From a bacterium (lineage in GTDB: Bacteria > UBP6 > UBA1177 > JAKLFG01), in contig JAKLFG010000003.1 of assembly GCA_022711315.1 (NCBI GenBank), positions 23,890 through 87,889 of the forward strand: a stretch of 64,000 nt of DNA, read 5' to 3'. Position numbers and translations under genes: made by a program. How positions within the stretch are numbered: position 1 is the first letter of the stretch; each line of letters begins with the position of its first letter. Positions 5,018-46,745 of this stretch are shown piece after piece. The notes beneath the pieces were generated by a model, which was not told where the DNA came from, made no database searches, and saw only the letters and a program-made list of their open reading frames with translations.

Positions 5018-8000
5018 ATGCCTTTTGTCCATCTCCATGTGCATACCGTCTATAGTTTCCTCGACGGCCTCACGAGACCTTCCGCGCTCATGAAAGAGGC
5101 GGCGCGCCTCGGCATGCCCGCCATCGCCATCACCGACCACGGCAACATGCACGGCGTGATAGACTTCTATCTCTCGGCGTTCCGCGAGGTCGAGGACCCG
5201 GCGACCAAGAAAAAGAAGAAGGAGCGCTTCATACGCCCCCTCATCGGCATGGAGGCCTACATCGCCGGCGGCTCGCGCAAGGAACGGGTCTCCCAGCAGG
5301 ACGCGTTCCACATGGTCCTGCTCGCCCGCGACCGCGAGGGATACCGCAACCTCATGTACCTCTCGTCGCAATCGTACCTCGACGGGTTCTACTACAAACC
5401 GCGCATAGACCGCGAACTGCTGAAAGAGCACGCCGGCGGGCTCATCGCCACATCGGCCTGTCTCGCCGGAGAGATACCGCGAGCGCTCAAGGACGGCAAC
5501 AAGAAACGGGCGCTTCAGATAGCGGCCGAATACCGTGAACTGTTCGGCGCCGACAACTTCTTCCTCGAACTGCAGGTGAACGGCATCAAGGAGCAGGACG
5601 AGGTCAACCCGCTCATCATGGATATCGGCCGGGAACTCGACATACCCTTCGTCGCGACCAACGATGTGCACTATCTCCGCCCGGAACACGCCGAGGCGCA
5701 GGATATCCTGTTCTGCATCAACGAAAAGAAGAAGGTCGAGGACACCGACCGGATGCACCACGAATCGCGCGAGTTCTACCTGAAGAGCGAGGAGGAGATG
5801 CGGCGGCTGTTCGCCCCGCTCTGCGCCGAGGCGATCGACAACACCGGCTTTGTCGCCGGGCGTTGCCAACTGGAACTGGAACTCAACAAGAGTTATCTCC
5901 CCCACTACGACACCGGCGGCGTCCCGCTGACCGATTACCTGCTGGACGGTGCGCGGCGCGGGCTCGACCGGCATATCGCCGAGGGACGCATCCCGTCAGC
6001 GAAACGGGAACGGTACGAGGAACGGCTCGCCCACGAGAGCGGCATCATATCGGCCAAGGGCTATCAGGGCTACTTCCTCATCGTCGCCGACTTCATCCGC
6101 TGGGCGAAGGAGAACGGGGTCCCAGTCGGGCCGGGGCGCGGGTCGGGGGCCGGATCGCTCATCGCCTACTGCCTCGGCATCACCGAGATAGACCCGTTGC
6201 GCTACGGGCTCTTCTTCGAGCGGTTCCTCAACCCGGAACGCCCCTCGATGCCCGACTTCGATGTCGATTTCTGCCAGCAGAAGCGGGAACGGGTCATCGA
6301 ATATGTCACGCAGAAGTACGGCGCCGAGAATGTCGCGCAGATAGCGACCTTCAGCAAGATGAAGGCGAAGGCGGCCATCCGCGATGTCGCGCGCGTCCTT
6401 GCCATCGACCTGCCGACCGCCGACCGGCTCGCCAAGATGGTGCCCGACAATCTCGACATACTCCTGCGCCCCCAGTTCTATCACGACCCCCAGCAGGGCA
6501 AGAACAACCGCGCGCTATTCGATGACCTCCGCTCGCGACACCCCATCCCCGACGATATCGCCGGCGACGCGGACCGGCTGAAAGAGTCGCTGGCCCGTCT
6601 CAAGGCGACCGGCCCCGACCAGCAGGCGGTCAAGACGCTCCTCGATGACATCGCCTCCTACGAAAAGGAGCGTGCCGTCATCGCCGCGAACGACACCTAC
6701 CGCCGCATCATAGAGGTCGCCGACCAGATCGAGGGGCTGTTCCGCCAGACGGGCAAGCACGCCGGTGGCATCGTCATATCCGACAAGGCGATCTGGGAGT
6801 ATTCCCCCATCTTCACCGACAAGGACGGCGCGCGGGTCACCCAGTACGACAAGGACATGGTCGAGAAGGCGGGGCTCGTTAAGTTCGACTTCCTCGGGCT
6901 CAAGACGCTCACGATGATACAGCACGCCACGGACCTCATCCGGCGCAAACAGCCGGGGTTCGACATCGCCCGCATCCCGCTCGACGACCCCGCGACCTAC
7001 AAGACGCTCTGGACGAAGACCACCAAAGGGGTGTTCCAGATGGAATCGGTCGGGTTCGGCAAGATGATAAAGCAGATGCGCCCCGACCGCATCGAGGACC
7101 TCATCGCCGCCGTTGCGCTGTTCCGCCCCGGCCCGATGGCGATCATCCCCAACTATGTCCGCCGCAAGCACGGCCGCGAGGAGGTCGTGTACGACCACCC
7201 GCTCGTGGAGGAGATACTCAAGGAGACCTACGGGCTCATCGTCTACCAGGAACAGGTCATGCAGATATCGGTCGCGATGGCCGGGTTCTCGATGGGGCAG
7301 GCCGACACGCTCCGCAAGGCGATGGGCAAGAAGCAGGCCGACGCGATGAAAAAGGCCGAATTCGATTTCTTCGAGGGCTCGCGCAAGAAAGGCATCGACC
7401 TCGCCGTCGCCCGGGGGGTCTTCGACCTCATGAAGAAGTTCGCCGAGTACGGCTTCAACAAATCGCACGCCGCCGTCTACGCCTTCCTCGCCTACCGCAC
7501 CGCGTACCTCAAGACCCACTTCCCGAGCGAGTTCTTCGCGGCGCTGATATCCTCCGAAGCGGGCAATTCCGCTAAGATATTCGAGTACATCGCCGACGCC
7601 CGCGCCATGGACATCGCCATCCTGCCGCCCGACATCAACCGGTCGGAACTCAGTTTCTCCATCGAGCAGGGGACTATCCGGTTCGGGCTCGGCGCCGTCA
7701 AGAATGTCGGTGAGGGGGCGGTCGAGGAGATACTGAAGGAGCGCGAGAAGAACGGCCCCTTCGCCTCGCTGTGCGACTTCACCGCGCGCATCAACCAGAC
7801 CCGGGTCAACAGCCGCGCCATCGAGTTCCTCATCAAGGCGGGCGCCTTCGATCTCACCGGCGTGAAGCGCGGCGATCTGTTCTCCATACTCCCCTTCGCC
7901 CTCCGCGAGGGCGAAAAGCGCTATCAGGACAAGGTCTGCGGCCAGACCTCGCTCTTCTCGCTCATGTCGCCCGACACCGCCGGGGGGTCGGCGCCCGAAG

Positions 8001-8776
8001 GGAACGACGACGCGTCGCTGCTCCGGTCGGCCGACCGCGCGACCCCCGCGTGGGACATCTTCCACACCCTCGCGCTTGAACGGGAGGTGCTCGGCACCTA
8101 TGTCTCTAACCATCCCGCCGCCTACTTCGCCCGCGAATCGCGCAATCTCGGGTTCGAGGATCTCGAGGAATACCTCTCGGCGATCGAGGAATCGGGCCGG
8201 GCGCCGCGCGAGAAGGTCTGGATACTGGGGACCGTGACCACCGAGATAAAACCGCAGAAAGGCCGCGACGGCGACTACTACCTGCGCGGCGTTATCGAGG
8301 GGGTCGGCGCCGCCGTCGAGTTCGTCATAAACAGGATACCCGACGCCTCGTCCCCGCTCGTCGACAAACTCAGGCACCCGCTCCCGCTCGCCTTCCGCAT
8401 ATCCCCGCGCATCGTCCGGAACATGGAGGAGGAACGGATCGACCGCATCGAGGCGGTCATAGAGGACATCGCCAAGGATGTGCTCACCGTGACCGAATAC
8501 CTGACGACGGGATCGGAAGGCCGCGTCCGCGCCGTGCTGGAGGCGCCGCGCGAGGTCATCGACGCCTCGCTCGATCTCATCAAACGGCTCCGCGAGCGGA
8601 GCGCCGTCGAGGAATCGGAGATGCCGCTCGCGGTGAAGATACTGTTCCCCGAGATCAAGTGGGCCGCCTATCTGGAGGGGATGGTATGGCTTTCGGAGGA
8701 CCGCGTCCGGATGCTCAAGGACCGCTTCGGCCCCGACCGGTTCTATTTCCTCCGCCGACAGGCGCCGGGGCAGTGA
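5018..8776 (+). CDS. dnaE: DNA polymerase III alpha subunit
   Basis: PHP-domain start MPFVHLHVHTVYSFLDG. Protein is 1252 aa with conserved polymerase core motifs. Confidence 0.95.
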   Translation: MPFVHLHVHTVYSFLDGLTRPSALMKEAARLGMPAIAITDHGNMHGVIDFYLSAFREVEDPATKKKKKERFIRPLIGMEAYIAGGSRKERVSQQDAFHMVLLARDREGYRNLMYLSSQSYLDGFYYKPRIDRELLKEHAGGLIATSACLAGEIPRALKDGNKKRALQIAAEYRELFGADNFFLELQVNGIKEQDEVNPLIMDIGRELDIPFVATNDVHYLRPEHAEAQDILFCINEKKKVEDTDRMHHESREFYLKSEEEMRRLFAPLCAEAIDNTGFVAGRCQLELELNKSYLPHYDTGGVPLTDYLLDGARRGLDRHIAEGRIPSAKRERYEERLAHESGIISAKGYQGYFLIVADFIRWAKENGVPVGPGRGSGAGSLIAYCLGITEIDPLRYGLFFERFLNPERPSMPDFDVDFCQQKRERVIEYVTQKYGAENVAQIATFSKMKAKAAIRDVARVLAIDLPTADRLAKMVPDNLDILLRPQFYHDPQQGKNNRALFDDLRSRHPIPDDIAGDADRLKESLARLKATGPDQQAVKTLLDDIASYEKERAVIAANDTYRRIIEVADQIEGLFRQTGKHAGGIVISDKAIWEYSPIFTDKDGARVTQYDKDMVEKAGLVKFDFLGLKTLTMIQHATDLIRRKQPGFDIARIPLDDPATYKTLWTKTTKGVFQMESVGFGKMIKQMRPDRIEDLIAAVALFRPGPMAIIPNYVRRKHGREEVVYDHPLVEEILKETYGLIVYQEQVMQISVAMAGFSMGQADTLRKAMGKKQADAMKKAEFDFFEGSRKKGIDLAVARGVFDLMKKFAEYGFNKSHAAVYAFLAYRTAYLKTHFPSEFFAALISSEAGNSAKIFEYIADARAMDIAILPPDINRSELSFSIEQGTIRFGLGAVKNVGEGAVEEILKEREKNGPFASLCDFTARINQTRVNSRAIEFLIKAGAFDLTGVKRGDLFSILPFALREGEKRYQDKVCGQTSLFSLMSPDTAGGSAPEGNDDASLLRSADRATPAWDIFHTLALEREVLGTYVSNHPAAYFARESRNLGFEDLEEYLSAIEESGRAPREKVWILGTVTTEIKPQKGRDGDYYLRGVIEGVGAAVEFVINRIPDASSPLVDKLRHPLPLAFRISPRIVRNMEEERIDRIEAVIEDIAKDVLTVTEYLTTGSEGRVRAVLEAPREVIDASLDLIKRLRERSAVEESEMPLAVKILFPEIKWAAYLEGMVWLSEDRVRMLKDRFGPDRFYFLRRQAPGQ

Positions 8777-8785
8777 CCGCAGGGT

Positions 8786-9727
8786 TCAGTCGGCGTCCCC
8801 TTTCTTCCTGCCGATCTCGCCGTTGAGCGCCCGGATGAATTCCATTGAGAGCAACAAGAGCAGAATGCTGTAATAGACCCACAGTATCGCGGCGGCGAAC
8901 CAGGTCGCCGAGCCGTACACGATGCTGTAGGAGGAGAGTTTCGTGATGTACACATTGAAAAGGTATTTCGCACCGTTCCAAAGCCCCGAGAACAGGAGCG
9001 CGCCGCCGATGACGGCCACGAAGTGTATCCGGGCCGCCATCGTGAAGGCGTAAATGAGGATGCTGAAGAACAGCAGGATGAAGAGGGTGATGAGCGGGAT
9101 GCTCCACAAAAGACCGTTGCCGGTCAGGAAATCGATGACCGGCTGGACCGCCGGGAACTGGTCGCGCAGGAGCGTGACCACCGACAGCACCATCGCCGAG
9201 AAATAGTGAAGGAAGAACAGGAGCAGGGTAAGGGCCACAATGATGAGGAACCCCACGAGCCGCGTGAAGACGAAATGGATCGGCTTGGTGCCGAATATCC
9301 GGTTGAGCGTGTCGGAAAGTGTCGAGAACAGGAGCGACGCCGAGACGGCGAGCGACAGGAAGCCGATGGTCGAGAGCGACGCGGTATGACGCGACAGCGA
9401 CAGGAACCCGGTCACCTGCTCGTCCTGAAGGTAGGGTATGATGATCTTGAGATAGCCCCGTACCGTCGCGATGAGTTGTTGCGGGGTCGTGTCGGGCGTT
9501 GAAAGGTGGTCGATGAAAAGCCCCAGCATCGCGCCGACGATGATGAGGAACGGGATGAACGAGAGAAGCGCATAGAACGACACGGCGGCGGCGCGGTCGA
9601 GGCACTCATCGTCCACGAAGCCCTTGAGGGTGTTCCAGATGACCCGGAGCGGGCGACGCGCATCGACATACGAAAGAAATCTGCCCGCGAGGGAAACGAG
9701 GCGCTCGACGATCTTTCTTATGCTCAT
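8786..9727 (-). CDS. YihY/BrkB family inner-membrane protein
   Basis: N-terminal region ...LDRAAAVSFYALLSFIPFLIIVGAM followed by multiple TM helices, typical of YihY. Overlaps the der stop by 4 nt. Confidence 0.75.
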   Translation of the reverse strand: MSIRKIVERLVSLAGRFLSYVDARRPLRVIWNTLKGFVDDECLDRAAAVSFYALLSFIPFLIIVGAMLGLFIDHLSTPDTTPQQLIATVRGYLKIIIPYLQDEQVTGFLSLSRHTASLSTIGFLSLAVSASLLFSTLSDTLNRIFGTKPIHFVFTRLVGFLIIVALTLLLFFLHYFSAMVLSVVTLLRDQFPAVQPVIDFLTGNGLLWSIPLITLFILLFFSILIYAFTMAARIHFVAVIGGALLFSGLWNGAKYLFNVYITKLSSYSIVYGSATWFAAAILWVYYSILLLLLSMEFIRALNGEIGRKKGDAD

Positions 9728-11079
9728 CTCGACGACCGCCGGAACAGGAATCTCACCGCGACGCCCGTGTAATCGAACGATGCGTAAAAACGGTTGGTCA
9801 GGTAGCGTTCGTAGGAAAAATGGACGCTGTCCGGCTTATTGACCGATATCGTGACGGTCGGCGGGCGCACCGACGACATCTCGGCCTTGCGGAAGACGAT
9901 CGGCTTATGGAATTTCGCGAGCGGCGGCGGGGTGTGCTGGACCGTCCGCATGAGCCAGTCGGTGAGCGTCGCCGTATCGATGGAACGGGTATATCGCCCG
10001 TACACTTCGTTCACCAGATCGAGCACCTTCCCGACCCGTTGGCGTTCGAGCGCCGACAGCGAGAGTATCGGGGCGTACGGGGCGAACTTTATCCGTTCGC
10101 GCAGGTCCTTCACGAGTTTGTCGTAGGTCTTCTCGTCCTTCACGACGAGATCCCACTTATTCAGGGCGAGGATGATGCCGCGGTTCTTTTCATGGGCAAG
10201 CCCGATGACGCGGAGGTCCTGATCGGTCGCCGGCTCGGTCGCATCCATCAGGAACAGCGCGATGTCGGCGCGGTCTATCGACTTGAAGGCGCGGACGACC
10301 GCCGCGCTCTCCATTTTCAGCGAGATGTTCTTCTTGCGCCGAATGCCGGCGGTGTCGATGATGCGGTAGGTGCGACCGTCACGGGTGAACACCGAATCTA
10401 TCGGATCCATCGTGGTGCCCGGTATGGGCGAGACAAGCATCCGTTCCTCGCCCAGAAGCGCGTTCACCAGCGTCGATTTCCCCACATTGGGCCGCCCGAT
10501 GACCGCGATGCGCACCTCATCGGCCGGCGGCGGCAGTTTCTCCGCGATCTCCCGCGCGGTCCAGAACTCTTTCGTCATCTCGTCGAGCAGATCGCGTACG
10601 CCGTAGCCGGTGGTGCCGGAGACCGGGAACACCTGATCGGTCCCCGTCTCGTAGAACTCGGCGGCGTGCGGCTCGCGGTGTTCGTCGTCCACCTTGGAGA
10701 CGACGAGCCAGTGGCGGATGCCGGTCCGGCGGACGATGTCGAGTATATCGCGGTCGGCCGGGTGAAGCCCCGCCAGTCCGTCCCCCACGACGAGCACGCC
10801 ATCGACCGACGCGAACACCTCCTCGATCTGGCGGCGGATGCCCAGCGTTATGGCGTCCCCCGCCTCATCTATGTGAAAGCCCCCCGTGTCGATGACCGTG
10901 AACGGTTTGTCGTCGTACAGTATATCTTCATAGTGAAGGTCGCGCGTCACGCCCGGCAGGTCGTCCACGATGGCGGCGTTCTTGCCGAGTATCTGGTTGA
11001 ACAGCGTCGATTTCCCGACATTGGGCCGCCCGACGATCGCGATGAGCGGCTTGATGTTGTTGACCGGGCGCGGTGTCAT
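9724..11079 (-). CDS. der: Ribosome-biogenesis GTPase Der (EngA), double GTPase
   Basis: Two G1 motifs, IAIVGRPNVGKSTLFN and IAVIGRPNVGKSTLVN, plus a KH-like C-terminus. Start set at the internal Met (MTPRPV); the longer ORF to 11241 is probably an extension artefact. Confidence 0.9.
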   Translation of the reverse strand: MTPRPVNNIKPLIAIVGRPNVGKSTLFNQILGKNAAIVDDLPGVTRDLHYEDILYDDKPFTVIDTGGFHIDEAGDAITLGIRRQIEEVFASVDGVLVVGDGLAGLHPADRDILDIVRRTGIRHWLVVSKVDDEHREPHAAEFYETGTDQVFPVSGTTGYGVRDLLDEMTKEFWTAREIAEKLPPPADEVRIAVIGRPNVGKSTLVNALLGEERMLVSPIPGTTMDPIDSVFTRDGRTYRIIDTAGIRRKKNISLKMESAAVVRAFKSIDRADIALFLMDATEPATDQDLRVIGLAHEKNRGIILALNKWDLVVKDEKTYDKLVKDLRERIKFAPYAPILSLSALERQRVGKVLDLVNEVYGRYTRSIDTATLTDWLMRTVQHTPPPLAKFHKPIVFRKAEMSSVRPPTVTISVNKPDSVHFSYERYLTNRFYASFDYTGVAVRFLFRRSSR

Positions 11080-11690
11080 GGCCGTTCTTCCGTCAGCACG
11101 GGGTATTTCTTCTTTATCGCGTCGAGCCGCTTGCGCATCTCCGGCGCATCGCGCAGGGTCGCCGTCAGCAGTTCCTTGATGACGAGCGCCTGCGGCTTCT
11201 TCCCCGCCTCGCCGTTCATCGCCACCATGTTGCGATTCCACCAGCCGACCGCATCGTGCACCTCCATGAGCCCCAGTTTGAAAAGATTGATATGGAACGA
11301 ACGGGTGTCGGTCGGCATCTTCTCCTTCTTGAAGCGCGGAAAGTCCTTTTTCGCTATGTCGGCCGCCCGGTCGTCGTCGAGTATCGCGAAGGCGTCGCAG
11401 ACCCCCTTGGCGAGCGTAAAGGCCTCCATGACGAGTTCGCCGCCGGCCCGCGTGACGGCGCGGTCGTCGGGATGGGCGCTCTTTTTGTCGATGGATGCGT
11501 ACAGTTCTATGTTCGCCTTAACGGTCTGCGCGAGCGTCCGGCAGACCGCGAGCCCCTCGTCGCGCGTGGCGATGATCGACTCGTAGAAGCGTATCTCCTC
11601 CTCGCTCGGCCTCTTCTGCTCCTGACCGAAGAGCGGCAGAACGGCGAGTATCAGAAGGAACAGCGCCGGGTTCTTCATCTCACTTCTCAC
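11076..11690 (-). CDS. Secreted hypothetical protein (204 aa) between era and der
   Basis: Has a signal peptide, LFLLILAVLPLFGQ. ATGA overlap with der and 4-nt spacing from era imply cotranscription. Confidence 0.5.
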   Translation of the reverse strand: MRSEMKNPALFLLILAVLPLFGQEQKRPSEEEIRFYESIIATRDEGLAVCRTLAQTVKANIELYASIDKKSAHPDDRAVTRAGGELVMEAFTLAKGVCDAFAILDDDRAADIAKKDFPRFKKEKMPTDTRSFHINLFKLGLMEVHDAVGWWNRNMVAMNGEAGKKPQALVIKELLTATLRDAPEMRKRLDAIKKKYPVLTEERP

Positions 11691-11693
11691 GGC

Positions 11694-12626
11694 TCACTCC
11701 TCACTTTTCTCAAAACCCATCTTTTTGAGCGTCCGTTCGCTCGAGAACCAGTTCTCCTCGACCCGCACATGGAGGAGGAGATGTATCTTTCTGCCGAACA
11801 GCGTCTCGAGTTCCGCCCTCGCCTGCGTCCCGATCTGTTTGAGCATACGCCCCTTCTCGCCGATGACGATCGCCTTCTGGCTCTTGCGCGCCACATTGAT
11901 GGTGGCGTTGATGACGAGCATGCCGGCGATGGTCTCGTGGTCGTATATCCGCTCCACTATGACGGCGGAATGGTAGGGCAGTTCCCGTTGCAGGAGGTGG
12001 AACATCTTCTCTCGTACGATCTCGGCGATAAGGAACTCGTCCGTCTGGTCGGACGGCTCTTCCGCCTCGAAATACTGGGGCCCGGCGGGCAGTATCGCGG
12101 TGACCGCCGCGAGCAGTTCGGGGACCCCGGCGCCCGAAAGAGCGCTTATGCGGTGGGCTCCGGCGAAGGGATACTGTTTCCCAAGCACGGCGACGGTGTC
12201 GTCTACCCGCATCTTCTTGACCGCGTCCACTTTGTTGGCGACGAGCAGGACCGGACACTGCACCTTCAATTTGCAGAGGATGTCTATCTCCTCTTTTCCC
12301 GGTCCCTGTTCAGGGTGCTGGGTCGTCACATCGACGAACAGGAGCACCGCGTCGGCCTCGCGCGCCTTTGAGAAAGCGGTCCTGTTCATCCAGTCGTTGA
12401 GCATCTTTCCGAGGTCGTCAGGGGTGATGCCGGGGGTGTCCGTGAATATCACCTGCGCGTCGTCGGTCGTATAGATGCCGCGTATCGCGTTGCGGGTCGT
12501 CTGCACCTTGGGCGACACGATGCTGACCTTCTTGCCGATCACAGTGTTGATAAAGGTCGATTTGCCGGTGTTCGGCGCTCCGATGACGGCGACGAACCCG
12601 CTGTGGGCGAGTTGTTCCTTCAGCAC
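11694..12626 (-). CDS. era: GTPase Era
   Basis: FVAVIGAPNTGKSTFIN G1 motif and a KH domain C-terminus. Start chosen at GTG (VLKEQL...) just after the ansA stop; the ORF-track N-extension to 12836 is unlikely. Confidence 0.85.
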   Translation of the reverse strand: MLKEQLAHSGFVAVIGAPNTGKSTFINTVIGKKVSIVSPKVQTTRNAIRGIYTTDDAQVIFTDTPGITPDDLGKMLNDWMNRTAFSKAREADAVLLFVDVTTQHPEQGPGKEEIDILCKLKVQCPVLLVANKVDAVKKMRVDDTVAVLGKQYPFAGAHRISALSGAGVPELLAAVTAILPAGPQYFEAEEPSDQTDEFLIAEIVREKMFHLLQRELPYHSAVIVERIYDHETIAGMLVINATINVARKSQKAIVIGEKGRMLKQIGTQARAELETLFGRKIHLLLHVRVEENWFSSERTLKKMGFEKSEE

Positions 12627-13633
12627 GGCTCGGTCACCTTTTCGCCCGCGATGGAGCGCATCATGAACTTCTTTATCTTCTTGAGATCGCTCCCGAACCG
12701 GCCGAGCGCCACCATGAGTTTGACGAGCGTCGCCTCGCGGGTCATGTCGGCGGCCGATATGAGCCCGTAGAACTCCGCCTTGGTCGCCGCCTCGTACAGG
12801 TGCAAATTCACCTTGCCGGCGGGCGACTGACTGCACACGACGATGGGGAACGCGTTCGCCGAGGCCTCCTTGAATATCTCCTCAAGCCCCGGATTGTCGG
12901 AAGGTATGTTGCCCGAACCGTAGGCCTCGAGCACGATGCCCTTCACCTTTTCATCGCGGACGATGGGCAGGAGCATCGAGAAATCGAAGCCGGGAAAGAA
13001 CGGCACGAGCATCACCCGCTCCTCGAGCGCGGTGTTGACCGAGAAGATACCGCTCGGCCGCGGGAGGAACAGCCGGTCGAGCCGTTCGAGCCCGATGCCG
13101 AGTTTTATCAGTTTCGGGTGGTTCGGGCTGTAGAACGCGTCGAAATCCCACGCGTCGCGCTTTTTGACGCGGTTGCCGCGGAAGGCGGCGGTATGGAAGA
13201 CCACCACCACCTCGTTCAGGTTACCGCGCAGGGCCACCTCGATGGCGGCGACGAGATTCTGGAGCGCGTCTGAGCGTTTATCTTTGAGCGGTATCTGCGA
13301 GCCGGTCAGCACCACCGGCTTGTCGAGATTCTCGAAGAAGAACGACAGGGCGGCGGCGGCGTAGGCCATCGTGTCGGTGCCATGGACGATGACGAACCCG
13401 TCATAGTTCTCGTACATCGCGGCGATCTTCTCGGCGATGAGTTTCCAGTGGGCGGGGCGGAACTGCGACGAATCGATGTTGCAGAGTTGGAACTGCTCGA
13501 TATGGTCCTCGAAGAGCGGATAGACCGACCGCTCGATGTAGTCGAAGGCGTAGGTGCCGGGGCGCAATTTCCCCTGCTCATTCGACTCCATGGCGAAGGT
13601 GCCGCCGGTGTGGAGTATCGCTATCTTGGCCAT
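12620..13633 (-). CDS. ansA: L-asparaginase, type I
   Basis: HTGGTFAM and VIVHGTDTMAY motifs. Protein is 337 aa. Confidence 0.85.
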   Translation of the reverse strand: MAKIAILHTGGTFAMESNEQGKLRPGTYAFDYIERSVYPLFEDHIEQFQLCNIDSSQFRPAHWKLIAEKIAAMYENYDGFVIVHGTDTMAYAAAALSFFFENLDKPVVLTGSQIPLKDKRSDALQNLVAAIEVALRGNLNEVVVVFHTAAFRGNRVKKRDAWDFDAFYSPNHPKLIKLGIGLERLDRLFLPRPSGIFSVNTALEERVMLVPFFPGFDFSMLLPIVRDEKVKGIVLEAYGSGNIPSDNPGLEEIFKEASANAFPIVVCSQSPAGKVNLHLYEAATKAEFYGLISAADMTREATLVKLMVALGRFGSDLKKIKKFMMRSIAGEKVTEPC

Positions 13634-13792
13634 CGGACGCTCCGTAACGCTGTCGGTCGGGTCGTTTTCTAACCCTAACCTCTCGAAAAGGCAAGTTTAT
13701 GCTCGCAGAGGCGGGGTGAAAAAAGTTGCGGCGGGGTTTCTTTTCGGATATACTCGACAACGTTAAGAGAACAACCGTTCGGGAGGCATCCC

Positions 13793-15337
13793 ATGAAACG
13801 AAGTGCACTCTGCCTTTTTTGTCTGTGTCTTACCGGCCTGATCGCGGCCTGCGATTCTTCGACCGCCCACAAGGACGCCGACACCGTCGGCGCATCGGAC
13901 ACCGACACCGTCGCGACCGACGAACTCACCGGCGACACCACCATCACCGACGGGCCGGTAACGGACACTGATGCCCCCCTTCCCGACCTATCGACCGACG
14001 ACGATACCCCGGCGACCGACGAACTCGTGACCGATACCGATGCCCCCGGGAGCGACGAACTGCTGACCGACACCGACGGGTATATCAACCCCGCCTGCTC
14101 TTCCGTCGGCGAGACCTGCGTCACCGGCATCGACTGCTGTTCCGGCGCCTGCGAGAAGAACCCGATCGGCGACTTCGTCTGCATCGATGCGGAACTTTGC
14201 GAGCCGGTGGGCGGCGACTGCACGGTGGCGGCCGACTGCTGTTCGCTCGGCTGCGACGGCACGACATGCATCGATTCTCTCTGCCTGGTCACCAACGACC
14301 CGTGCATCGACGACGCCGAATGCTGTTCCAACCGCTGTGAGGTCAATTTCTGCGCGAGCGGCGGCGCCTGCCTTCCCGTCGGCGAGGATTGTTCGACGGG
14401 CGGCTCGACAAGTTGCTGTTCGATGAACTGCGCCGAGGCATCGGACGGCAAGATGCGCTGTATGGGAATCGGGGTCTGCCGTTCCGAGGGCGAGGTCTGC
14501 AGCGAGGACAGCGACTGTTGCAATTACCAGTGCACCGCCGAAGGGTTCTGTCTGGTGCAGCAGGAATGCGATGTCGCCGGCGAGGCATGCAACGACCCGA
14601 AGGCCTGCTGCAGCGGCGTATGCGCCGATGACGGCAGCGGCTATAAATTCTGCCAGTCGCTCGGTGGGTGCAAGGTGTTCGGCGAATTGTGCCACACCGA
14701 TGCCGAGTGCTGTAACAACCCGGCCAACGGCGGTCCCGGCGTCTGCGCCGAGGTCGCGGAAGGGATAGGCCGTTGCGAGAACCCGACCGGCTGCGCACCG
14801 GCGGGCGAACTGTGCGGCGAGGGCTACCACGACTGCTGTCCCTGCGCGACGCCACAGGATTCGCCGGGGTGCCCGAACGACAACGGCGACCTGTTCTGTC
14901 AGGAGACGATATTCGGCATATCGCGCTGTTTCTCGGCCAACTGCGTCATCGAGGGTGGTCCCTGCGATTCGAACGACGATTGCTGCGGCGGCAACTGCAA
15001 CGAGGAGAACACCTGCGGCCCCGGGATCGAGTGCCTTCCCAACCTCTCCCCCTGCGCCATGCCCGACCAGTGCTGCTGCAACATCTGCGCGCCGGACGGG
15101 AACGGCGATCTGGTCTGCTGCCCCGGCGACATCGAATGCATCCCCGAGGGCGAACACTGCACGACCGACCTCGACTGCTGTTCGGGCAACTGCAGCGTCA
15201 ACGGCATCTGCGGACCCGACATATCCGACTGCATCCCGGTCGGCGGCGAATGCGAGAAGGATGAGGATTGCTGTTCCGGCTCCTGCTATGAGGTGACCGG
15301 CACCTGCAATAGCCCGTTCTTCTTTTTCGTCTATTGA
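13793..15337 (+). CDS. Secreted lipoprotein: acidic D/T linker plus about 13 tandem six-cysteine (C-C-CC-C-C) knottin/Dickkopf-like modules
   Basis: Signal CLCLTGLIAAC, a DTDTV-rich linker, then repeated C-x4-6-C-x5-6-CC-x3-C-x4-10-C units (e.g. CEPVGGDCTVAADCCSLGCDGTTC). Confidence 0.7.
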   Translation: MKRSALCLFCLCLTGLIAACDSSTAHKDADTVGASDTDTVATDELTGDTTITDGPVTDTDAPLPDLSTDDDTPATDELVTDTDAPGSDELLTDTDGYINPACSSVGETCVTGIDCCSGACEKNPIGDFVCIDAELCEPVGGDCTVAADCCSLGCDGTTCIDSLCLVTNDPCIDDAECCSNRCEVNFCASGGACLPVGEDCSTGGSTSCCSMNCAEASDGKMRCMGIGVCRSEGEVCSEDSDCCNYQCTAEGFCLVQQECDVAGEACNDPKACCSGVCADDGSGYKFCQSLGGCKVFGELCHTDAECCNNPANGGPGVCAEVAEGIGRCENPTGCAPAGELCGEGYHDCCPCATPQDSPGCPNDNGDLFCQETIFGISRCFSANCVIEGGPCDSNDDCCGGNCNEENTCGPGIECLPNLSPCAMPDQCCCNICAPDGNGDLVCCPGDIECIPEGEHCTTDLDCCSGNCSVNGICGPDISDCIPVGGECEKDEDCCSGSCYEVTGTCNSPFFFFVY

Positions 15338-15368
15338 CACGAGAACGAACTGATACCCGGGGTCTCAC

Positions 15369-16691
15369 ATGAAAAGGATCGTATTACTGTGGACAGGTGC
15401 CTGCCTGATGTTCCTTGTTGCGGCCTGCGACACGGAAAATGACGCTGCGGCCGACCATGAGGCGGCCGATGCCGACAGCGCCGTCACCGACGAACTGGTG
15501 ACCGACGCCGACACCGTCTCCTCCCCTATCGTCGAGCAGACCTTCGGTGCTTTTGCGCCATGGTCCTCCCCCATCGAGGATTTTCGTTCGTTCGGTGTTG
15601 ACAACATGATAGAGGGCTTCACGCAGGAGGTGACCGACCTCGCCGTTCTCGACGGCCGGCTCTGGTTCGGCTACGGCGACGCGAACCTCAATTTCGGCAC
15701 GAAGATGATAAAGTACGCCGGCGGCGGCATCCAGTTCCGCTACTTCGACAGCCCCGACGACGCGCAGGCGAAGGGCGATCTCTGGAGCGGCGACGAGATG
15801 ATCGAGCATTTCCGTGTCTTTGACGGCGACCTCTGGTATGCCGGGGTCGATTCGACCGATCAGGACGAACTCACCTCGCGGCCGCTCATCGGCGGCAACT
15901 TCTACCGCCACGATGACGACGGCTGGAAGAAGTTCCGCTCCGTCCCCGGCGGGGAGCATGTCCACGACGCCGCCTTCTTCGACGGCCGCATCTTCACCGT
16001 CGGTTCGGGGGCGACCGACCGCACCGAATGGGAGGCGGGCAACATCTTCCGCTATCTCTGGGAGTCGTCCGACCGCGGCGAGACCTTCACCGTGACCCAC
16101 CGCATCGGCCATCCGACGCAGGGCGGCGCGGGCGATTCGCGCTTCGTCCATCTCCTGCCGGTGGGCGACACGATGTATGTCTTCGGCTACTGGAGCGACT
16201 TCGCGGCGAATCAGGCCTATGTCGCCAACGCTTATTACGACGGCGAGACGGTGACCGAATTTACCGCCGAGGATACGAGCATCATCAAGGGGATCTGGCC
16301 GACCGCGACCCTGCCGCTGCCCAACGACACGGGGCTGGTGTGGGGCGTCAATGTCGACACGGCGACGCTCAAGTATCAGATCTGGCAGGTGGCGGCCGAC
16401 GGGACGGCCACGGCGCTCGACGCCTTCGCCGGGAAGCAGGTGTTCGATGTGGGCTACTATCCCGATACCGAAGAACTGCTTTACCTCGTCTACGACAGCG
16501 ACGCCTACGCGGAACTCGTCGATCCGGTCGCGGTGACCGTCTATGCCGCGCCGCTCGCCGACCCGAACGATATCAAAGAGATAGCTACCTTCACCGACCC
16601 GACAGTGCACCTCGTCTCGCTCGCCTACTGGCAGGGATATCTCTTTGCCGGTACCAACGATTGCCGCATATTCCGGGCGAACGCCGAATAA
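15369..16691 (+). CDS. Secreted lipoprotein, acidic linker plus putative beta-propeller
   Basis: Signal ...FLVAAC, D/A/T linker, and repeated blade-like DGRLWFGYG / DGDLWYAGV / DGRIFTVGSG motifs. Confidence 0.6.
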   Translation: MKRIVLLWTGACLMFLVAACDTENDAAADHEAADADSAVTDELVTDADTVSSPIVEQTFGAFAPWSSPIEDFRSFGVDNMIEGFTQEVTDLAVLDGRLWFGYGDANLNFGTKMIKYAGGGIQFRYFDSPDDAQAKGDLWSGDEMIEHFRVFDGDLWYAGVDSTDQDELTSRPLIGGNFYRHDDDGWKKFRSVPGGEHVHDAAFFDGRIFTVGSGATDRTEWEAGNIFRYLWESSDRGETFTVTHRIGHPTQGGAGDSRFVHLLPVGDTMYVFGYWSDFAANQAYVANAYYDGETVTEFTAEDTSIIKGIWPTATLPLPNDTGLVWGVNVDTATLKYQIWQVAADGTATALDAFAGKQVFDVGYYPDTEELLYLVYDSDAYAELVDPVAVTVYAAPLADPNDIKEIATFTDPTVHLVSLAYWQGYLFAGTNDCRIFRANAE

Positions 16692-18416: not shown

Positions 18417-20765
18417 ATGAAGATCGTTCGCCTGTTCATCGTTCCCGTTTTTATCGTTTCTCTTCTTTTTGCCTGTAGCGAGAAGAAAAGCGACACCTTC
18501 ACGCCGAGAACGGCGAAAAAGACCGTCACGGCGGCCACGGGCGGCACCGTTTCGACGGCCGATGGCTCCGCATCGGTCGAGATACCGGCGGGCGCTCTTG
18601 CGCAGGACACCGAGATAACGATAACCGAGAAGAAGAAGGATGACTATCCCGAGGAGGAGAAACTGGCCAGTTCGGTCTGGCATTTCGGCCCCGACGGGCT
18701 GGTATTCGAAAAACCTATCACGATGAAGATCGATCTCGACCGCAACAAGGTGGAAGACGAGGTCGGCGTCATCGCGGTCCACCGCGAAGGGGCGTGGCAT
18801 TCTAAAGGCTATTCGGGGGGCGAGTACGCGGCGGGCGACCCCATCATGGCCGGTGACCCCATCATGGCCGGCGACCCCATCATGGCCGGCGACCCCATCA
18901 TGGCCGGCGACCCCATTATGTCGCAGGTGGGGCACTTCTCCGATTTCGCGATCTATGTGAGGGACAAGAACGATATCGGCCTGACCTGTGAGGAGATATA
19001 CGATTGCGCAGTACCGTGCGGTAACGACTTCGAGTGCATGAATGCCTGCAAGGCAGAGGGAAGCGTCAACGCGCAACCATTGTTCCAGGCACTGGTCGAT
19101 TGCTGGATGGAGAATTGCGACGCCGCCTGCGGCGACGGCGATCCGATCGCGTGCGACGCCTGCGCCTCCGAGAACTGCGCCTCTGAACTCGCCGCGTGCG
19201 GTGTCACACTCGGCGCCGACAGCGACACGACCGGTCGTGACGATATCGCGACCGACGATATCGCGACCGACGACATCCTGCCCGACGCCGATACGGTCAA
19301 GAACCCCGACGACCTGCTGGGCGAATGGGAGTTCACGACCGATAACGCCCATGTATCGGTTATGAAGGGCGAGACCGACGATTATATGCTCGACATCAGT
19401 TTCAACAGCACCGAGGAGTTCTACTACTCGCACGCCGGCACTTTCGACGGCTACACCTACACCGGCGATTATACCTACTGGGACGGCTCGACCGAGAAAA
19501 CGGCGGCGATGACGGTCGTCTTCACCCTGACCGGACCCAACACCGTGAATGTCGAGATAACGGCCGAGGCGCCGATGGGTAACCGGACGCTCACCGGCGG
19601 GGTACGCGCGGTCTACGATGAGGACAGCATCCTGCCCGATAGCGATACGGTCGGCCCGGTCTGCGGCAACACGGTGGTGGAGAGCGGCGAGACCTGCGAC
19701 AGCACCACGACCGCCTGCGCCGATTCGCTCTCGGGATCGACCGGCACCATCTACTGCTGCGCCGAGACCTGCAGTTGGAACATGGACCGCTGTGTGACCG
19801 ACAGTGTTTGCTATGGCGGCTCCTTCTACCAGTATGTTTCGACCTTCGACCTGTGCGTCAGGATCGGCACCGGCGTACCGCCGACCGAACAGATGGGGTG
19901 CTACGATGCGACGGGACCCATCTCCTGTCCGTTGGCAGCCGAAGCCTTCGCGGGGCAGGATGCGCAGTATTTCGGCGGCAAGACCAAAATGCTCGCGTCC
20001 TATTCAGAATCGGTCTACGATCAGCAGACCGGTCTTTCGTGGCAGAGAACCTTCGCGAGCGACTACTCGCTGGACGGCTATTGCGCCTCCGTGGACGGCT
20101 GCACCTGGGCCGAGGCGCAGTCCTTCTGCGCAGCACAGAACTGGGAGGGAGTGAGCGACTGGCGTCTGCCGACCGACCGCGAGATCGACACCATACTGCA
20201 CTTCGGCATGGAACCGATGTTCGATCCCGATTTTTTCCAGAACATCCCGGCGAACTACGGCCTCTGGACCACGATCGAGGTCCCCGATATGACCGGATAC
20301 GCCTATCAGGTCTATACCCATTCGGGCGCTTTCGAACCCTATGACCAGACGGCGGTCGCCAAAGTGCTCTGCGTAAGCGGCACCTACTATCAGCCGCTGA
20401 TGCAGGCGCTTTCCCTACTGCACGATAACGACCCGGTATGGTATGACGAGACGACCGGCCTGATGTGGGCTCCGGTGTCCAACACCATGGCGACATGGGA
20501 AAATGCGCTCGCCGAGTGCCTTATCTCGACCTATGCCGGCTACGACGACTGGCGTCTGCCAACCGCCAACGAACTGCGGACCATCTACGATCTGTCGGTG
20601 GGCGAATTCAGCGGGACCGAATTTCCCGGAGACTGGCAGGTGGAGCAGTGGACCTCCACGACCGCCGGGTATTCCCCCGAGGCGGCCTATGTAGTGAACG
20701 GGATGGTCGGTGCGCGCTATCCGATGTACAAACTAAATCCCGGCGGCGTCCGCTGCGTGCGGTAA
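18417..20765 (+). CDS. Secreted lipoprotein with (AGDPIM)5 tandem repeat, Cys-rich region and two DUF1566 (Lcl C-terminal-like) domains
   Basis: Signal ...SLLFAC. The two DUF1566 domains are TGLSWQ...WAEAQSFC...DWRLPTDREIDTIL and TGLMWAP...WENALAEC...DWRLPTANELRTIYD. Confidence 0.7.
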   Translation: MKIVRLFIVPVFIVSLLFACSEKKSDTFTPRTAKKTVTAATGGTVSTADGSASVEIPAGALAQDTEITITEKKKDDYPEEEKLASSVWHFGPDGLVFEKPITMKIDLDRNKVEDEVGVIAVHREGAWHSKGYSGGEYAAGDPIMAGDPIMAGDPIMAGDPIMAGDPIMSQVGHFSDFAIYVRDKNDIGLTCEEIYDCAVPCGNDFECMNACKAEGSVNAQPLFQALVDCWMENCDAACGDGDPIACDACASENCASELAACGVTLGADSDTTGRDDIATDDIATDDILPDADTVKNPDDLLGEWEFTTDNAHVSVMKGETDDYMLDISFNSTEEFYYSHAGTFDGYTYTGDYTYWDGSTEKTAAMTVVFTLTGPNTVNVEITAEAPMGNRTLTGGVRAVYDEDSILPDSDTVGPVCGNTVVESGETCDSTTTACADSLSGSTGTIYCCAETCSWNMDRCVTDSVCYGGSFYQYVSTFDLCVRIGTGVPPTEQMGCYDATGPISCPLAAEAFAGQDAQYFGGKTKMLASYSESVYDQQTGLSWQRTFASDYSLDGYCASVDGCTWAEAQSFCAAQNWEGVSDWRLPTDREIDTILHFGMEPMFDPDFFQNIPANYGLWTTIEVPDMTGYAYQVYTHSGAFEPYDQTAVAKVLCVSGTYYQPLMQALSLLHDNDPVWYDETTGLMWAPVSNTMATWENALAECLISTYAGYDDWRLPTANELRTIYDLSVGEFSGTEFPGDWQVEQWTSTTAGYSPEAAYVVNGMVGARYPMYKLNPGGVRCVR
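18831..18920 (+). repeat. Perfect in-frame tandem repeat, 5 x 18 bp (gc[cg]gg[ct]gaccccat[ct]atg) encoding AGDPIM
   Basis: Read directly from the sequence, five consecutive units. Confidence 0.9.
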
Positions 20766-20828: not shown

Positions 20829-22304
20829 ATGCCCATGAAGATGTCCCGTGGACGCCTCGCCTTCTTTTTATCCGGACTTTCTCTTTTTGCCTTTACCGCC
20901 TGTACGCCGCCCGAGGAAGAGACCTACTGCGAAACCTCGTATGATTGCCCCGACGGGTGGGAATGCGGCCCCGAGTATGTGTGTATCGAGCCCGGCACCG
21001 ACAATAACACCGGAGGGAACGACAACGCACTTCCCGACACGATCGGACCAGACACCGCCGTGGAGGAAGACCTGCCGACCGATGACGGCGAGGCCCCGGT
21101 GACCGATACGGAAGAAGACACTTTTATCGACACGGATGAGCCGCTCATAGATGCGGATGAGCCGACGACCGGCGACATAGAACCTTCCGACACGAACGAT
21201 ATAACGCCCGATAGCGATAACAGCGTCAACGAATGCGATCAGAACAACGGAGGGTGCGCGCAGAATTGCGCCGACACCGCGGACGGGTATACCTGTTCGT
21301 GCGACGACGGCTATACACTGAACGCCGACAAGCATGCCTGCGACGACAACGACGAATGCACGGAGAACACCAATCCCTGCGACAACAATGGCGACACGCC
21401 GGCGACCTGCGCCAATACACCGGGCAGTTACACCTGCACCTGCACCGCGCTCCGGTTCGAGTTCACGAACGGATCCTGCTTCGACATCGACGAATGTACC
21501 GCCGGCACCGACAACTGCGCGGAGACGGGAAGTTCCTGCACCAACAGCGTCGGCCTCTTTTCCTGCGCCTGCGACGACTACTACGATGGCGACGGAACGA
21601 CCTGCGCTCTCTGCGACACCGATGGCAAGTGCGGTGCGGATTGTCTCTCCTGCGAAGGGGCAACGCCTCACTGCAAGGACAACGGGAACGGCACGACCCA
21701 ATGCGTCCAATGTACGGACAACGCCCACTGCAACACCGGCGCGGGAGAGGTCTGCAATGCTCAGAACATCTGCACCGCGTGCCCCCTACCGCTGACGATC
21801 GCCACCTGGGCCAGCGACGATGAGGGATGGACGAGGACCGGCAACTGGGTACGGGAAACAACGAGTGACGGGTGGATGCGTTACGACGATGACTCGCATA
21901 AGACCAACTACGATCACTCCCTCACCTATGCTACCGACATCAATATTGCGGGTTGCTCCGCCGCCACTTTGAGTTTCTCGATCACTTTCATGGATTATGT
22001 GTACACCACCGACGCCGACAAATCGGAGAAAATGTATGTGGAATGTTCGGGTGACGGGGGTGGCAGTTGGAACACCCTTGTCCCCACCCCCTATCCCGCC
22101 AATCAGTCTTCTTCTCGTTGTTCGAACTGCTATTGCGACGGAGACAGTTCGAGTTTCAGCGAAAAATCTTTCGGATGGACCGCGCAGAACATAACTCTTC
22201 CCGTCGCCTGCAAGACATCCGCCGTCCGTATCCGTTTCAGGGCAAAAGGCACCGACTCCTGGGCCATCAATTACTGGGGCATCGACACGGTGATATTGAA
22301 CTAA
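20829..22304 (+). CDS. Secreted lipoprotein with calcium-binding EGF-like domains and a C-terminal MAM-like beta-sandwich
   Basis: Lipobox ...FAFTAC, N-terminal CETSYDCPDGWEC module, and an acidic linker. cbEGF signatures are DIDECTAGTDNCAETGSSCTNSVGLFSCAC and NECDQNNGGCAQNC..GYTCSC. Confidence 0.7.
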   Translation: MPMKMSRGRLAFFLSGLSLFAFTACTPPEEETYCETSYDCPDGWECGPEYVCIEPGTDNNTGGNDNALPDTIGPDTAVEEDLPTDDGEAPVTDTEEDTFIDTDEPLIDADEPTTGDIEPSDTNDITPDSDNSVNECDQNNGGCAQNCADTADGYTCSCDDGYTLNADKHACDDNDECTENTNPCDNNGDTPATCANTPGSYTCTCTALRFEFTNGSCFDIDECTAGTDNCAETGSSCTNSVGLFSCACDDYYDGDGTTCALCDTDGKCGADCLSCEGATPHCKDNGNGTTQCVQCTDNAHCNTGAGEVCNAQNICTACPLPLTIATWASDDEGWTRTGNWVRETTSDGWMRYDDDSHKTNYDHSLTYATDINIAGCSAATLSFSITFMDYVYTTDADKSEKMYVECSGDGGGSWNTLVPTPYPANQSSSRCSNCYCDGDSSSFSEKSFGWTAQNITLPVACKTSAVRIRFRAKGTDSWAINYWGIDTVILN

Positions 22305-22324
22305 CGATACGGGGAGTCGGTATC

Positions 22325-29507: not shown

Positions 29508-29965
29508 GCCGCGCCTCCCTTACGGTGGTCCTTGAGTATCTTGAGGAGACCTTTCCGGTCGAGGTTGCCGTACACCTTGCCGTTGATGCTGATGACCGGC
29601 GCAAGGCTGCAACATCCGAGGCACGCGACGATCTCGAGCGAGAAAAGTCCCTCGTTGTCGGTCTCGCCGCCCTTGATGCCGAGTTCGTCCGATATCCAGC
29701 CGATGACGAGCGATGCGCCCTTGATGTGGCAGGCGGTCCCGTCACAGACCGATATCTTGAACTTGCCGGGTTTGACCCGTTTGAACTGGGCATAGAAACT
29801 GACGACACCCTCGACCTCGACGACCGAGACGGTGAAATGCCGGGCGACCTCGGCAATCGCCTCGTTGGAGATGTAGCCTTCTTCTTCCTGGACCGCCTGC
29901 AACGCCTTTATCAGGTTGCTTCGGTCTGGTTCGATCTTCTTGAGCGACGCCGCTACGGTACTCAT
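29504..29965 (-). CDS. NuoE-like 2Fe-2S thioredoxin-fold ferredoxin subunit
   Basis: ISVCDGTACHIKG and CLGCCSLAPV cysteine pattern. Confidence 0.8.
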   Translation of the reverse strand: MSTVAASLKKIEPDRSNLIKALQAVQEEEGYISNEAIAEVARHFTVSVVEVEGVVSFYAQFKRVKPGKFKISVCDGTACHIKGASLVIGWISDELGIKGGETDNEGLFSLEIVACLGCCSLAPVISINGKVYGNLDRKGLLKILKDHRKGGAA

Positions 29966-46595: not shown

Positions 46596-46745
46596 CCGCC
46601 ATCCCGCCCTGTCACTGTAGGCCGTCCCGGACGAGACTGTGGTACAGTGTCGACAGGCCGGAAGCCGCAGCATTCATGCGAGGTAAGGGTTGGGTGGGTT
46701 TTATTAAAAACGGGAGATCACTTCGCGCACCGGAAGCCGAAGTAG
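46596..46745 (-). repeat. Copy 1 of a conserved ~150-bp 3'-end/3'-flank element (last codons FGFRCAK plus ~120 nt structured downstream region)
   Basis: About 90% identical by eye to 47889-48035. Contains an interrupted 12-bp inverted repeat (cctgtc-gac-actgta ... tacagtgacagg). Confidence 0.8.

Follow-up and report, generated by a model that had tools for sequence, protein, structure and literature searches.

A predicted bacterial lipoprotein with twelve tandem knottin-type modules and its conserved family

The gene described here lies in a 64-kb window of bacterial DNA (64,000 nucleotides of contig JAKLFG010000003.1, assembly GCA_022711315.1). It occupies positions 13793..15337 on the + strand, starts with ATG and encodes a cysteine-rich protein of 514 residues, referred to below as the knot protein. 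The product is very probably a lipoprotein in which a disordered acidic tether carries twelve knottin-type modules, and it belongs to a large family of fixed architecture that is under purifying selection. Its function was assigned tentatively: the array may be a scaffold that binds in the cell envelope and is tied, in other lineages, to signalling through extracytoplasmic function (ECF) sigma factors. For this explanation as a whole, structure and mechanism together, a probability of about 0.45 was estimated.

Gene model and module array

An earlier, sequence-only reading of the window had placed the open reading frame (ORF) at exactly these positions. This was confirmed, and the identical 514-residue product had been called on 14 public metagenome contigs (ENA, JGI, Logan), on none of them with a Pfam label. 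Module cysteines were invariant or nearly so in an alignment of 60 homologs, in which the modules aligned one-to-one. The GC content at third codon positions (GC3) of the gene was 0.82, and the ratio of nonsynonymous to synonymous substitution rates (dN/dS) against orthologs was 0.06-0.25 across the module region, indicating purifying selection. Together these observations establish a real coding sequence and rule out a chance pattern. A minus-strand ORF of 450 residues (13988-15340) was considered as an alternative gene and ruled out by homology, GC3, dN/dS and the public gene calls. The features of the knot gene are as follows.

13781..13786, + strand: ribosome-binding site GGGAGG, 7 nt upstream of the knot gene ATG
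13793..13852, + strand: lipoprotein signal peptide, residues 1-20, lipobox I-A-A-C20, Asp at +2, helix at residues 2-17 in the AlphaFold2 model
13853..14095, + strand: acidic D/T/E/P-rich tether, residues 21-101, predicted disordered
14096..14182, + strand: knottin module 1 (C102-C130)
14198..14269, + strand: knottin module 2 (C136-C159), invariant signature VAADCCSLGC
14282..14353, + strand: knottin module 3 (C164-C187)
14369..14461, + strand: knottin module 4 (C193-C223), loop 2 of 7 residues, invariant R222-C223
14477..14551, + strand: knottin module 5 (C229-C253), signature CRSEGEVC; six Cys complete in 142/142 relatives
14567..14653, + strand: knottin module 6 (C259-C287); a four-Cys module (Cys I and IV lost) in 14 relatives
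14669..14776, + strand: knottin module 7 (C293-C328), CC-to-Cys-V loop of 10 residues
14792..14929, + strand: variant module 8 (C334-C379), eight Cys, extra pair C351/C360 clade-specific
14942..15016, + strand: knottin module 9 (C384-C408); missing in 95/142 relatives
15032..15121, + strand: variant module 10 (C414-C443), eight Cys; C429 and C443 covary
15137..15211, + strand: knottin module 11 (C449-C473); best single-module Pfam scores
15230..15307, + strand: knottin module 12 (C480-C505)
15308..15337, + strand: hydrophobic C-terminal tail NSPFFFFVY and TGA stop

The N-terminus, MKRSALCLFCLCLTGLIAAC, has a basic n-region (K2, R3), a hydrophobic core and a lipobox (...GLIAAC20) that matches the pattern [LVI][ASTVI][GAS]C. 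A crude lipobox pattern was found in 99/142 family members. The earlier call of a lipoprotein is borne out by this signal peptide and lipobox, and from sequence the assignment as a bacterial lipoprotein with a predicted lipid anchor is well supported. The acidic linker that had been described corresponds to the tether and was modelled as disordered, with a predicted local distance difference test score (pLDDT) below 50 for residues 21-100. Its dN/dS of 0.26-0.45 is more relaxed than that of the module region. Tandem Repeats Finder (TRF) located a 36-bp tandem repeat in the tether-coding DNA at 13993-14076 (2.3 copies, 79% matches, TDxD-TPATDEL units); within the module region it found no DNA-level repeat and no sign of recent module amplification. 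Tether length varies among orthologs.

Cysteine makes up 80/514 residues (15.6%) of the knot protein, compared with 0-1% in housekeeping proteins of the window. Seventy-six of these cysteines lie within residues 102-505 at strictly periodic spacing and form 12 modules. Ten are canonical six-Cys modules of the form C-x6-C-x5-7-CC-x3-C-x4-10-C, and two are eight-Cys modules with an extra pair each (residues 334-379 and 414-443). Loop 1 is always 6 residues and loop 2 is 5-7; the spacing from the CC doublet to Cys V is 3 in canonical modules and 10 in module 7, and the last loop is 4-10. The sequence-only reading had counted about 13 modules of C-x4-6-C-x5-6-CC-x3-C-x4-10-C. The periodic modules, the last loop and the canonical x3 stand; the count falls to 12, loop 1 is fixed at 6, loop 2 extends to 7 and module 7 departs at the CC loop. 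In nearly every module loop 1 reads x-x-x-G-E/G-x, without a basic or hydrophobic P1-type residue. Across 78 aligned modules the six Cys columns are invariant. The inter-module linkers are just 4-6 residues long (IDAEL, IDSL, ASGGA, MGIGV, LVQQE, QSLGG, ENPTG, FSAN, GPGIE, PGDIE, GPDISD).

Most relatives end exactly 5 residues past the last Cys, with a hydrophobic pair at positions 3-4. A role of the tail as a PDZ or DegS-type activating peptide was not supported, the terminal residue being variable (P, G, R, N, E and others) and only the length and the internal hydrophobic pair being conserved.

Fold of the modules

An AlphaFold2 model built with the family alignment had a mean pLDDT of 80.9 and a predicted template modelling score (pTM) of 0.72, with most of the module region above 90 pLDDT. 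Foldseek against the PDB returned single-module matches only. The best were all inhibitor cystine knot (ICK) peptides, with template modelling (TM) scores normalised to the target of 0.52-0.82 among the top eight. The top match was the SOTI-III trypsin inhibitor; U3-scytotoxin-Sth1a (root-mean-square deviation (rmsd) 0.4 Å), nemertide alpha-1, omega-atracotoxin and psalmotoxin were among the other best matches.

A profile of the 78 modules was searched against PDB sequences and matched U3-scytotoxin-Sth1a (5fzv) at E = 1.5e-6. Further matches were to 5fzw (1.5e-5), 6px7 (6.3e-5), omega-conotoxin MVIIC (3.2e-4) and DkTx (6cuc_A, 0.038), and essentially all 36 matches at E<=1 were cystine-knot peptides, although Cys-driven composition bias may have inflated the scores. 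Against Pfam the whole protein gave just sub-threshold matches to Omega-toxin and Conotoxin_I2 (15.5 vs cutoff 22 and 15.3 vs cutoff 27 bits), and against NCBIfam none at E<=10. The best single modules also stayed under the Pfam gathering cutoffs (Toxin_18 23.0 vs 24.3, Conotoxin_I2 22.7 vs 27, Omega-toxin 19.7 vs 22 bits), and almost all sub-threshold single-module matches were to knottin-clan toxin or inhibitor models.

Two folds had been named for the modules by the sequence-only reading, and the searches it proposed with knottin, Dickkopf_N and colipase models separated them. Knottins were matched, and the ICK/knottin-like assignment is sustained by the AlphaFold2 model with its knottin PDB matches, by the profile E value given above and by the correlated loss of Cys I and IV described below. 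Dickkopf_N (PF04706) matched 1/10 modules tested (module 11), at 21.7 vs 25 bits, the match covering positions 25-50 of the 51 in the model. The Pfam colipase model had no match at E<=10 to the whole protein or to single modules, and colipase superposed poorly (target-normalised TM 0.27-0.31, rmsd 7-11 Å). The Dickkopf/colipase alternative was rejected on this poor superposition and on a Dickkopf_N match that was a half-domain below the cutoff; neither model gave a full match.

Disulfide pairing from natural variation

Cys presence and absence were scored per module in 142 full-length relatives. Exactly Cys I and Cys IV were missing from 38/40 four-Cys modules, spread over eight module positions and at least 22 lineage groups (60% identity); 1/40 had lost Cys II and V. 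The spacing identifies the lost member of the CC doublet as Cys IV, not Cys III. The extra C429/C443 of module 10 were both present in 13 relatives and both absent in 122 of the 142, and the extra C351/C360 of module 8 were restricted to the close clade. Because cysteines are lost and gained in pairs, mostly I with IV, we infer the pairing I-IV, II-V, III-VI. The support for this connectivity is indirect, and III-VI follows by elimination only.

The same C-C-CC-C-C framework can also adopt a granulin-like fold (PMC7191308). No Cys-loss pattern in the 142 relatives fitted I-III/IV-VI (granulin-like) or sequential pairing, and the granulin-like fold was rejected, I-III/IV-VI pairing being incompatible with the joint loss of Cys I and IV.

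The reduced modules of the relatives keep Cys II, III, V and VI (II-V and III-VI), the core of the disulfide-directed beta-hairpin (DDH). The DDH is the proposed two-disulfide precursor of the ICK fold. The four-Cys modules of relatives resemble it, whereas all modules of the knot protein keep the predicted I-IV disulfide. One relative (P0151, 2,291 residues, 310 Cys) seems to consist of about 75 four-Cys units of C-x5-C-x4-C-x5-C without CC doublets, a pattern equal to knot modules minus Cys I and IV (DDH-like).

Family and conservation

A homology search returned 231 relatives, all annotated as 'hypothetical' and nearly all from metagenome-assembled genomes (MAGs) labelled Myxococcales, Myxococcota, Deltaproteobacteria, Polyangiales or Sandaracinus. 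In an exhaustive profile search the number of cluster representatives was 2,974 at E<=1e-3, 926 at E<=1e-10 and 293 at E<=1e-30. Most relatives are 440-490 residues long with a signal peptide and lipobox. A 67%-identical ortholog (locus L010) lies beside TyrRS and GNAT genes in a 37-42% GC MAG labelled Sumerlaeota.

Invariant motifs are specific to individual modules (VAADCCSLGC, CRSEGEVC, R222-C223, R378-C379, NP-x-GC-x-P-x-GE-x-C). Outside the cysteines, orthologous modules are 56% identical when the proteins compared share at least 50% overall identity; modules inside the window protein are 24% identical to one another. The core family has a set number and order of modules, namely 11, with 12 in the sub-clade of the window; because module 9 is the one missing in 95/142 relatives, it was taken as an addition in the sub-clade to a core of 11. 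A search for relatives with variable module number had been suggested earlier. The core family shows no such variation, and some distant relatives do, with 19-27 modules. Some longer relatives carry N-terminal TSP_3, Dicty_CTDC or BACON_2 regions of extracellular-matrix or carbohydrate type.

Linkage to ECF sigma and anti-sigma genes in other lineages

Loci carrying knot-gene homologs, numbered L###, represent about 35 non-redundant contexts. Genes for a sigma factor of the ECF type and for a single-pass anti-sigma protein adjoin the homolog in L001, L002, L021, L023 and L024, and local hidden Markov models (HMMs) added sigma and/or anti-sigma genes in L011, L013, L017, L018, L039, L043, L048 and L062. 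All sigma matches (11/11) fell within 2 kb of a knot ORF, although such zones made up just 35% of the DNA searched (naive P about 1e-5, with loci that are not fully independent). The cassette was present in about 14/35 non-redundant contexts (about 40%). In the anti-sigma proteins a weak zf-HC2 match is followed by one transmembrane segment and an extracytoplasmic FecR+TPR or FecR+PEGA part; the anti-sigma position in L021 is taken by a transmembrane protein with a CBM48 domain. Kinases lie near homologs in L002, L003, L012 and L014, and glutaredoxin-domain genes in L003 and L023. Two contexts carry only a recurrent lipoprotein of about 506 residues. The neighbourhood of ECF267 comprises a sigma factor, a FecR-TPR anti-sigma factor and a Ser/Thr kinase (Casas-Pastor et al. 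2021), and the gene context of the homologs resembles it as compared by description only.

The sigma/anti-sigma pair of L002 has a knot paralog on either side, and both paralogs share a promoter-like motif with the sigma operon (regions 5357-5545 and 7910-8000). The motif, GAGCCGA-N18-19-C(A/T)(A/T)A(C/T)-like, lies just upstream of start codons; it was not found at the other loci.

The recurrent lipoprotein (about 506-519 residues) accompanies the knot gene and sigma cassette in L001 (4969-6489), L021 (1729-3249) and L024 (1914-3473) and was also seen in L015, L017 and L051. The L021 and L024 copies are 51% identical, with a Cys-rich N-terminal part and faint CarboxypepD_reg matches, and in L001 the copy contains 54 Cys and its tether carries DSDT repeats. 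Gene calls such as P0099 and similar entries merge the FecR-TPR anti-sigma gene with the downstream knot gene, which creates a false fusion (precomputed PF04773 + PF17557).

Promoter region and neighbours in the window

Three features of the immediate surroundings bear on expression.

13685..13701, + strand: 17-nt element GAAAAGGCAAGTTTATG between the asparaginase and knot genes, invariant across the window and L006-L009
13726..13754, + strand: putative sigma-70-type promoter TTGCGG-17-TATACT, from a phylogenetic footprint of 5 genomes
15369..16691, + strand: downstream lipoprotein gene, 31 nt past the knot gene; 440 residues, similar signal peptide and acidic tether, predicted 7-8-bladed beta-propeller

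In L007-L009 the promoter reads TTGCGA-17-TATAAT. A consensus promoter scanner made no call in the window, the -35 hexamer matching the consensus at only 3/6 positions. The 17-nt element is invariant in five genomes though the adjacent protein is only about 73% identical, and its AAGTT recurs about 25 nt downstream, beside the -35 hexamer; it may be an operator or part of a divergent promoter. In L007 an insertion of about 1.5 kb (7027-8560) lies between the asparaginase gene and the conserved knot promoter and is absent from the window, L006, L008 and L009.

Upstream neighbours of the knot gene encode DnaE, a BrkB-like protein, Der, Era and a divergently transcribed asparaginase. Downstream are an M49-like peptidase gene (two genes downstream) and several genes for exported proteins with EGF_CA, LamG or Lcl_C domains. 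Synteny is kept only in the close relatives L006-L009, where the knot protein is 73-94% identical and changes at a rate similar to that of DnaE and Der. Der is 100% identical to its counterpart in a MAG labelled 'bacterium' and at most 48% identical to those of named relatives. The knot gene and the beta-propeller lipoprotein gene are probably co-transcribed. The latter product was modelled at pLDDT 88.9 and pTM 0.85, with no specific structural match and no Pfam family, and it belongs to an unannotated family of its own, with over 100 relatives found in MAGs of Myxococcales, Bradymonadia, Phycisphaerae and Kapabacteria. As an obligate partner it was rejected, being missing from the otherwise syntenic L008 and forming an independent family.

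Proposed explanation and alternatives

In the preferred explanation the array would form one integrated, protease- and heat-resistant scaffold, with about 38 disulfides as cross-braces. Each module would add its own conserved surface to a composite binding surface, and the tether would hold the array off the membrane so that it could bind a partner, whether in the envelope or on the cell surface. This role would, in many lineages, be tied to the ECF sigma/single-pass anti-sigma pair, as a co-regulated output or an accessory signalling component. In the lineage of the window the gene would have been uncoupled from the cassette and would be expressed constitutively, apparently from a promoter of housekeeping type and along with the beta-propeller lipoprotein. 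A bolder version, in which the array is an unrecognised extracytoplasmic part (sensor or ligand platform) of ECF signalling and the family records the DDH-to-ICK transition, with the knottin fold perhaps originating in prokaryotes or arising there independently, is considered unlikely.

Several observations weigh against the preferred explanation. Adjacency to the cassette is limited to about 40% of the contexts. Three contexts (L003, L012, L014) have an adjacent Ser/Thr kinase and no cassette, and others are of housekeeping type (L010 with TyrRS/GNAT, and L022). A model with a specific physical partner is weakened, and co-regulation favoured, because the anti-sigma sensor domain varies (FecR+TPR, FecR+PEGA, CBM48). 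No match to the generic ECF promoter AAC-N-CGT/GTC was found upstream of knot or sigma genes, nor any general ECF motif. Apparent FecR-knot fusions did not survive inspection: P0099 (656 residues) is two merged genes, with the internal signal peptide and lipobox kept, and in the long ORF of L011 the upstream part of the frame is rich in Arg and resembles non-coding sequence. Neither sigma nor anti-sigma genes were detected across the 64-kb window, L006-L009 or L025-L028, and the promoter in the window looks sigma-70-type, not ECF-type. The structural part is touched by the possibility that AlphaFold2 may be biased to ICK by the Cys pattern; the modeled modules superpose on solved ICK peptides, and the III-VI threading and the overall shape of the array are predicted at most. 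The host may be an anaerobe, to judge by a NuoE/NuoF-like cluster typical of NADH-linked electron-bifurcating-type enzymes, and no oxidative-folding system was seen in the window.

A passive structural or protective element, i.e. a rigid protease-proof spacer or coat with no specific ligand or signalling role, would account for the ECF adjacency as envelope-stress co-regulation. The extreme disulfide cross-bracing, the very short fixed linkers and the pTM of the model would suit it, as would the plausibly structural nature of most conserved non-Cys residues (loop-1 Gly, D before CC), the housekeeping-type promoter and neighbours in the clade of the window and the many other acidic-linker tethered lipoproteins encoded there. 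However, the module-specific invariant motifs exceed what the fold needs and suggest specific surfaces, and the non-random sigma/anti-sigma linkage and frequent nearby paralogs suggest more than bulk structure, so that such an element seems rather improbable. Even less weight was given to the suggestion of the sequence-only reading that 13 consecutive copies make a multivalent binder or inhibitor, each module independently blocking a protease, channel or receptor. Inhibition of proteases and channels is a classic knottin activity; a trypsin inhibitor heads the fold matches, weak sub-threshold Tryp_inh and Squash matches were obtained, and the M49-like peptidase gene is close by. The modules are nevertheless not homogenised copies and not interchangeable (56% vs 24% identity), without a DNA repeat and with fixed number and order. 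Loop 1, the reactive loop in squash-type inhibitors, is acidic/Gly-rich and has no canonical P1 Arg, Lys, Leu or Phe. Purifying selection is strong with no arms-race sign, linkers of 4-6 residues would hinder independent binding of bulky targets, and the M49 neighbour is without a signal peptide (N-terminus MTRAAEALAKF...) and not syntenic beyond the close clade.

Because the modules are fixed, individually conserved, non-interchangeable and under purifying selection, both beads-on-a-string multivalency and a polyprotein precursor are disfavoured. The latter would be a toxin or antimicrobial cleaved to single knottin peptides for use against prey or competitors, a thought prompted by the sequence and fold similarity to venom ICK toxins and by the abundance of the family in Myxococcota-type MAGs, many relatives being in predatory Myxococcota. 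It was judged very unlikely: the linkers have no dibasic or other recurrent processing sites, a lipid anchor and tether are present, the model indicates fixed inter-module packing, toxin families typically diversify, and no maturation protease or exporter is conserved nearby. Equally little credence was given to a thiol metal-binding or redox-buffer protein whose cysteines stay reduced and form no disulfide knots. Its Cys content, a possibly anaerobic host (Fe-S/NuoF-like cluster) and the glutaredoxin-domain genes near two homologs would be in keeping with this, but cysteines are lost or gained in disulfide pairs (I+IV in 38/40; C429 with C443), the spacing fits ICK and not metallothionein or Fe-S motifs, AlphaFold2 confidently builds the knottin fold, and other exported domains of disulfide type (EGF_CA, cEGF) are encoded elsewhere in the window.

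Relation to known systems

Single ICK peptides (U3-scytotoxin-Sth1a, omega-conotoxins MVIIC/MVIIA, omega-atracotoxin-Hv1a, maurocalcin, SOTI-III) share the C-C-CC-C-C framework and loop lengths with the modules. The predicted modules superpose on such single-domain peptides at target-normalised TM 0.66-0.82 and rmsd 0.4-3 Å and would have the same I-IV, II-V, III-VI connectivity. The peptides are free, secreted animal or plant products of about 25-40 residues, under diversifying selection and directed at channels or proteases, whereas the knot protein is a bacterial lipoprotein of twelve fused modules under purifying selection. The Dickkopf N-terminal domain and colipase are Cys-rich with partly similar local spacing, but are ten-Cys domains of about 50-90 residues.

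Secreted cysteine-rich repeat proteins (SCREPs) are a descriptive class of which many bacterial members are recorded; 69.5% of prokaryotic SCREPs have unrecognised domains (PMC6262176, PMC9885460). With a secretion signal and at least two tandem disulfide-rich domains, the knot protein falls within the definition. What it shares with ICK members (DkTx / tau-theraphotoxin-Hs1a, Hi1a; ScrepYard) is a single chain that holds ICK domains in tandem. In the known ICK SCREPs there are two such modules, independent and flexible, which act through bivalency; in the knot protein there are 12, tightly linked and non-equivalent, and the chain has a predicted lipid anchor. Neither of the two SCREP papers (PMC6262176, PMC9885460) describes a tandem-knottin family from bacteria. 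The KNOTTIN database paper lists sequence-predicted 'bacterial knottins' without experimental structures and gives no architecture, family size, context or function; the likeness is that of knottin-like sequences in bacteria, the entries being known by that paper's mention alone.

The earlier description of the protein as unusual therefore held in that no curated family covers it, and did not hold in that the family is very large and bacterial knottins are already listed. The sequence-only reading had said that a known bacterial family with an assigned function would count against it; no such family was found. Literature searches turned up no account of a lipoprotein family with 12 knottin modules, nor of its linkage to ECF genes or its variants lacking Cys I and IV. 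The module fold and the two-module tandem ICK SCREPs of venoms are known. RseB-RseA and FecA-FecR are comparable in that homologs stand beside or inside sigma/anti-sigma operons with FecR+TPR anti-sigma factors. They differ in having no sequence or fold relation to the knot protein; no TonB-dependent transducer lies nearby, and the window gene is unlinked to the cassette.

Knottins have been studied almost wholly as small eukaryotic toxins, inhibitors and drug scaffolds, and the family would extend the fold to a new architecture and to the bacterial envelope. Its six-Cys and four-Cys variants at homologous positions would bear on cystine-knot evolution, and hyper-stable multi-knottin scaffolds would be on offer for engineering. 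The recurrent ECF sigma/FecR-TPR linkage provides a testable handle on Myxococcota-type signalling cassettes. About 38 disulfides per exported protein would raise the question of oxidative folding capacity in uncultured, possibly anaerobic lineages.

Other observations in the window

Lipoproteins with acidic tethers are unusually abundant in the window (3676-4854 (-), 18417-20765 (+), 24213-25202 (+), 46718-47653 (-) and 48008-48994 (-)). Among them are a pair of paralogous lipoproteins with FGE-sulfatase domains and a protein with Lcl_C/ZU5. Nearby genes encode exported proteins whose domains are eukaryote-like, EGF_CA/cEGF/Reelin at 20829-22304 and LamG at 22067-24121. A second Cys-rich lipoprotein at 56451-58253 (+) has 600 residues, 41 Cys and an acidic proline-rich tether of about 240 residues. 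It contains about nine C-x5-C-x5-C-x8-C units with no CC doublet and scores 24.7 vs 25 bits against the full Dickkopf_N model; the knot-module HMM did not match it.

Three genes at 25741-29965 (-) encode a NuoE-like protein, a NuoF-like protein (Complex1_51K, NADH_4Fe-4S) and a Fer2/Fer4/pyridine-nucleotide-disulfide oxidoreductase. At 11694-12836 and 9724-11241 (-) the longest-ORF starts give Era 380 and Der 505 residues, which overshoot the public calls (310 and 451 residues), and the public gene calls place a separate 200-residue gene between Era and Der.

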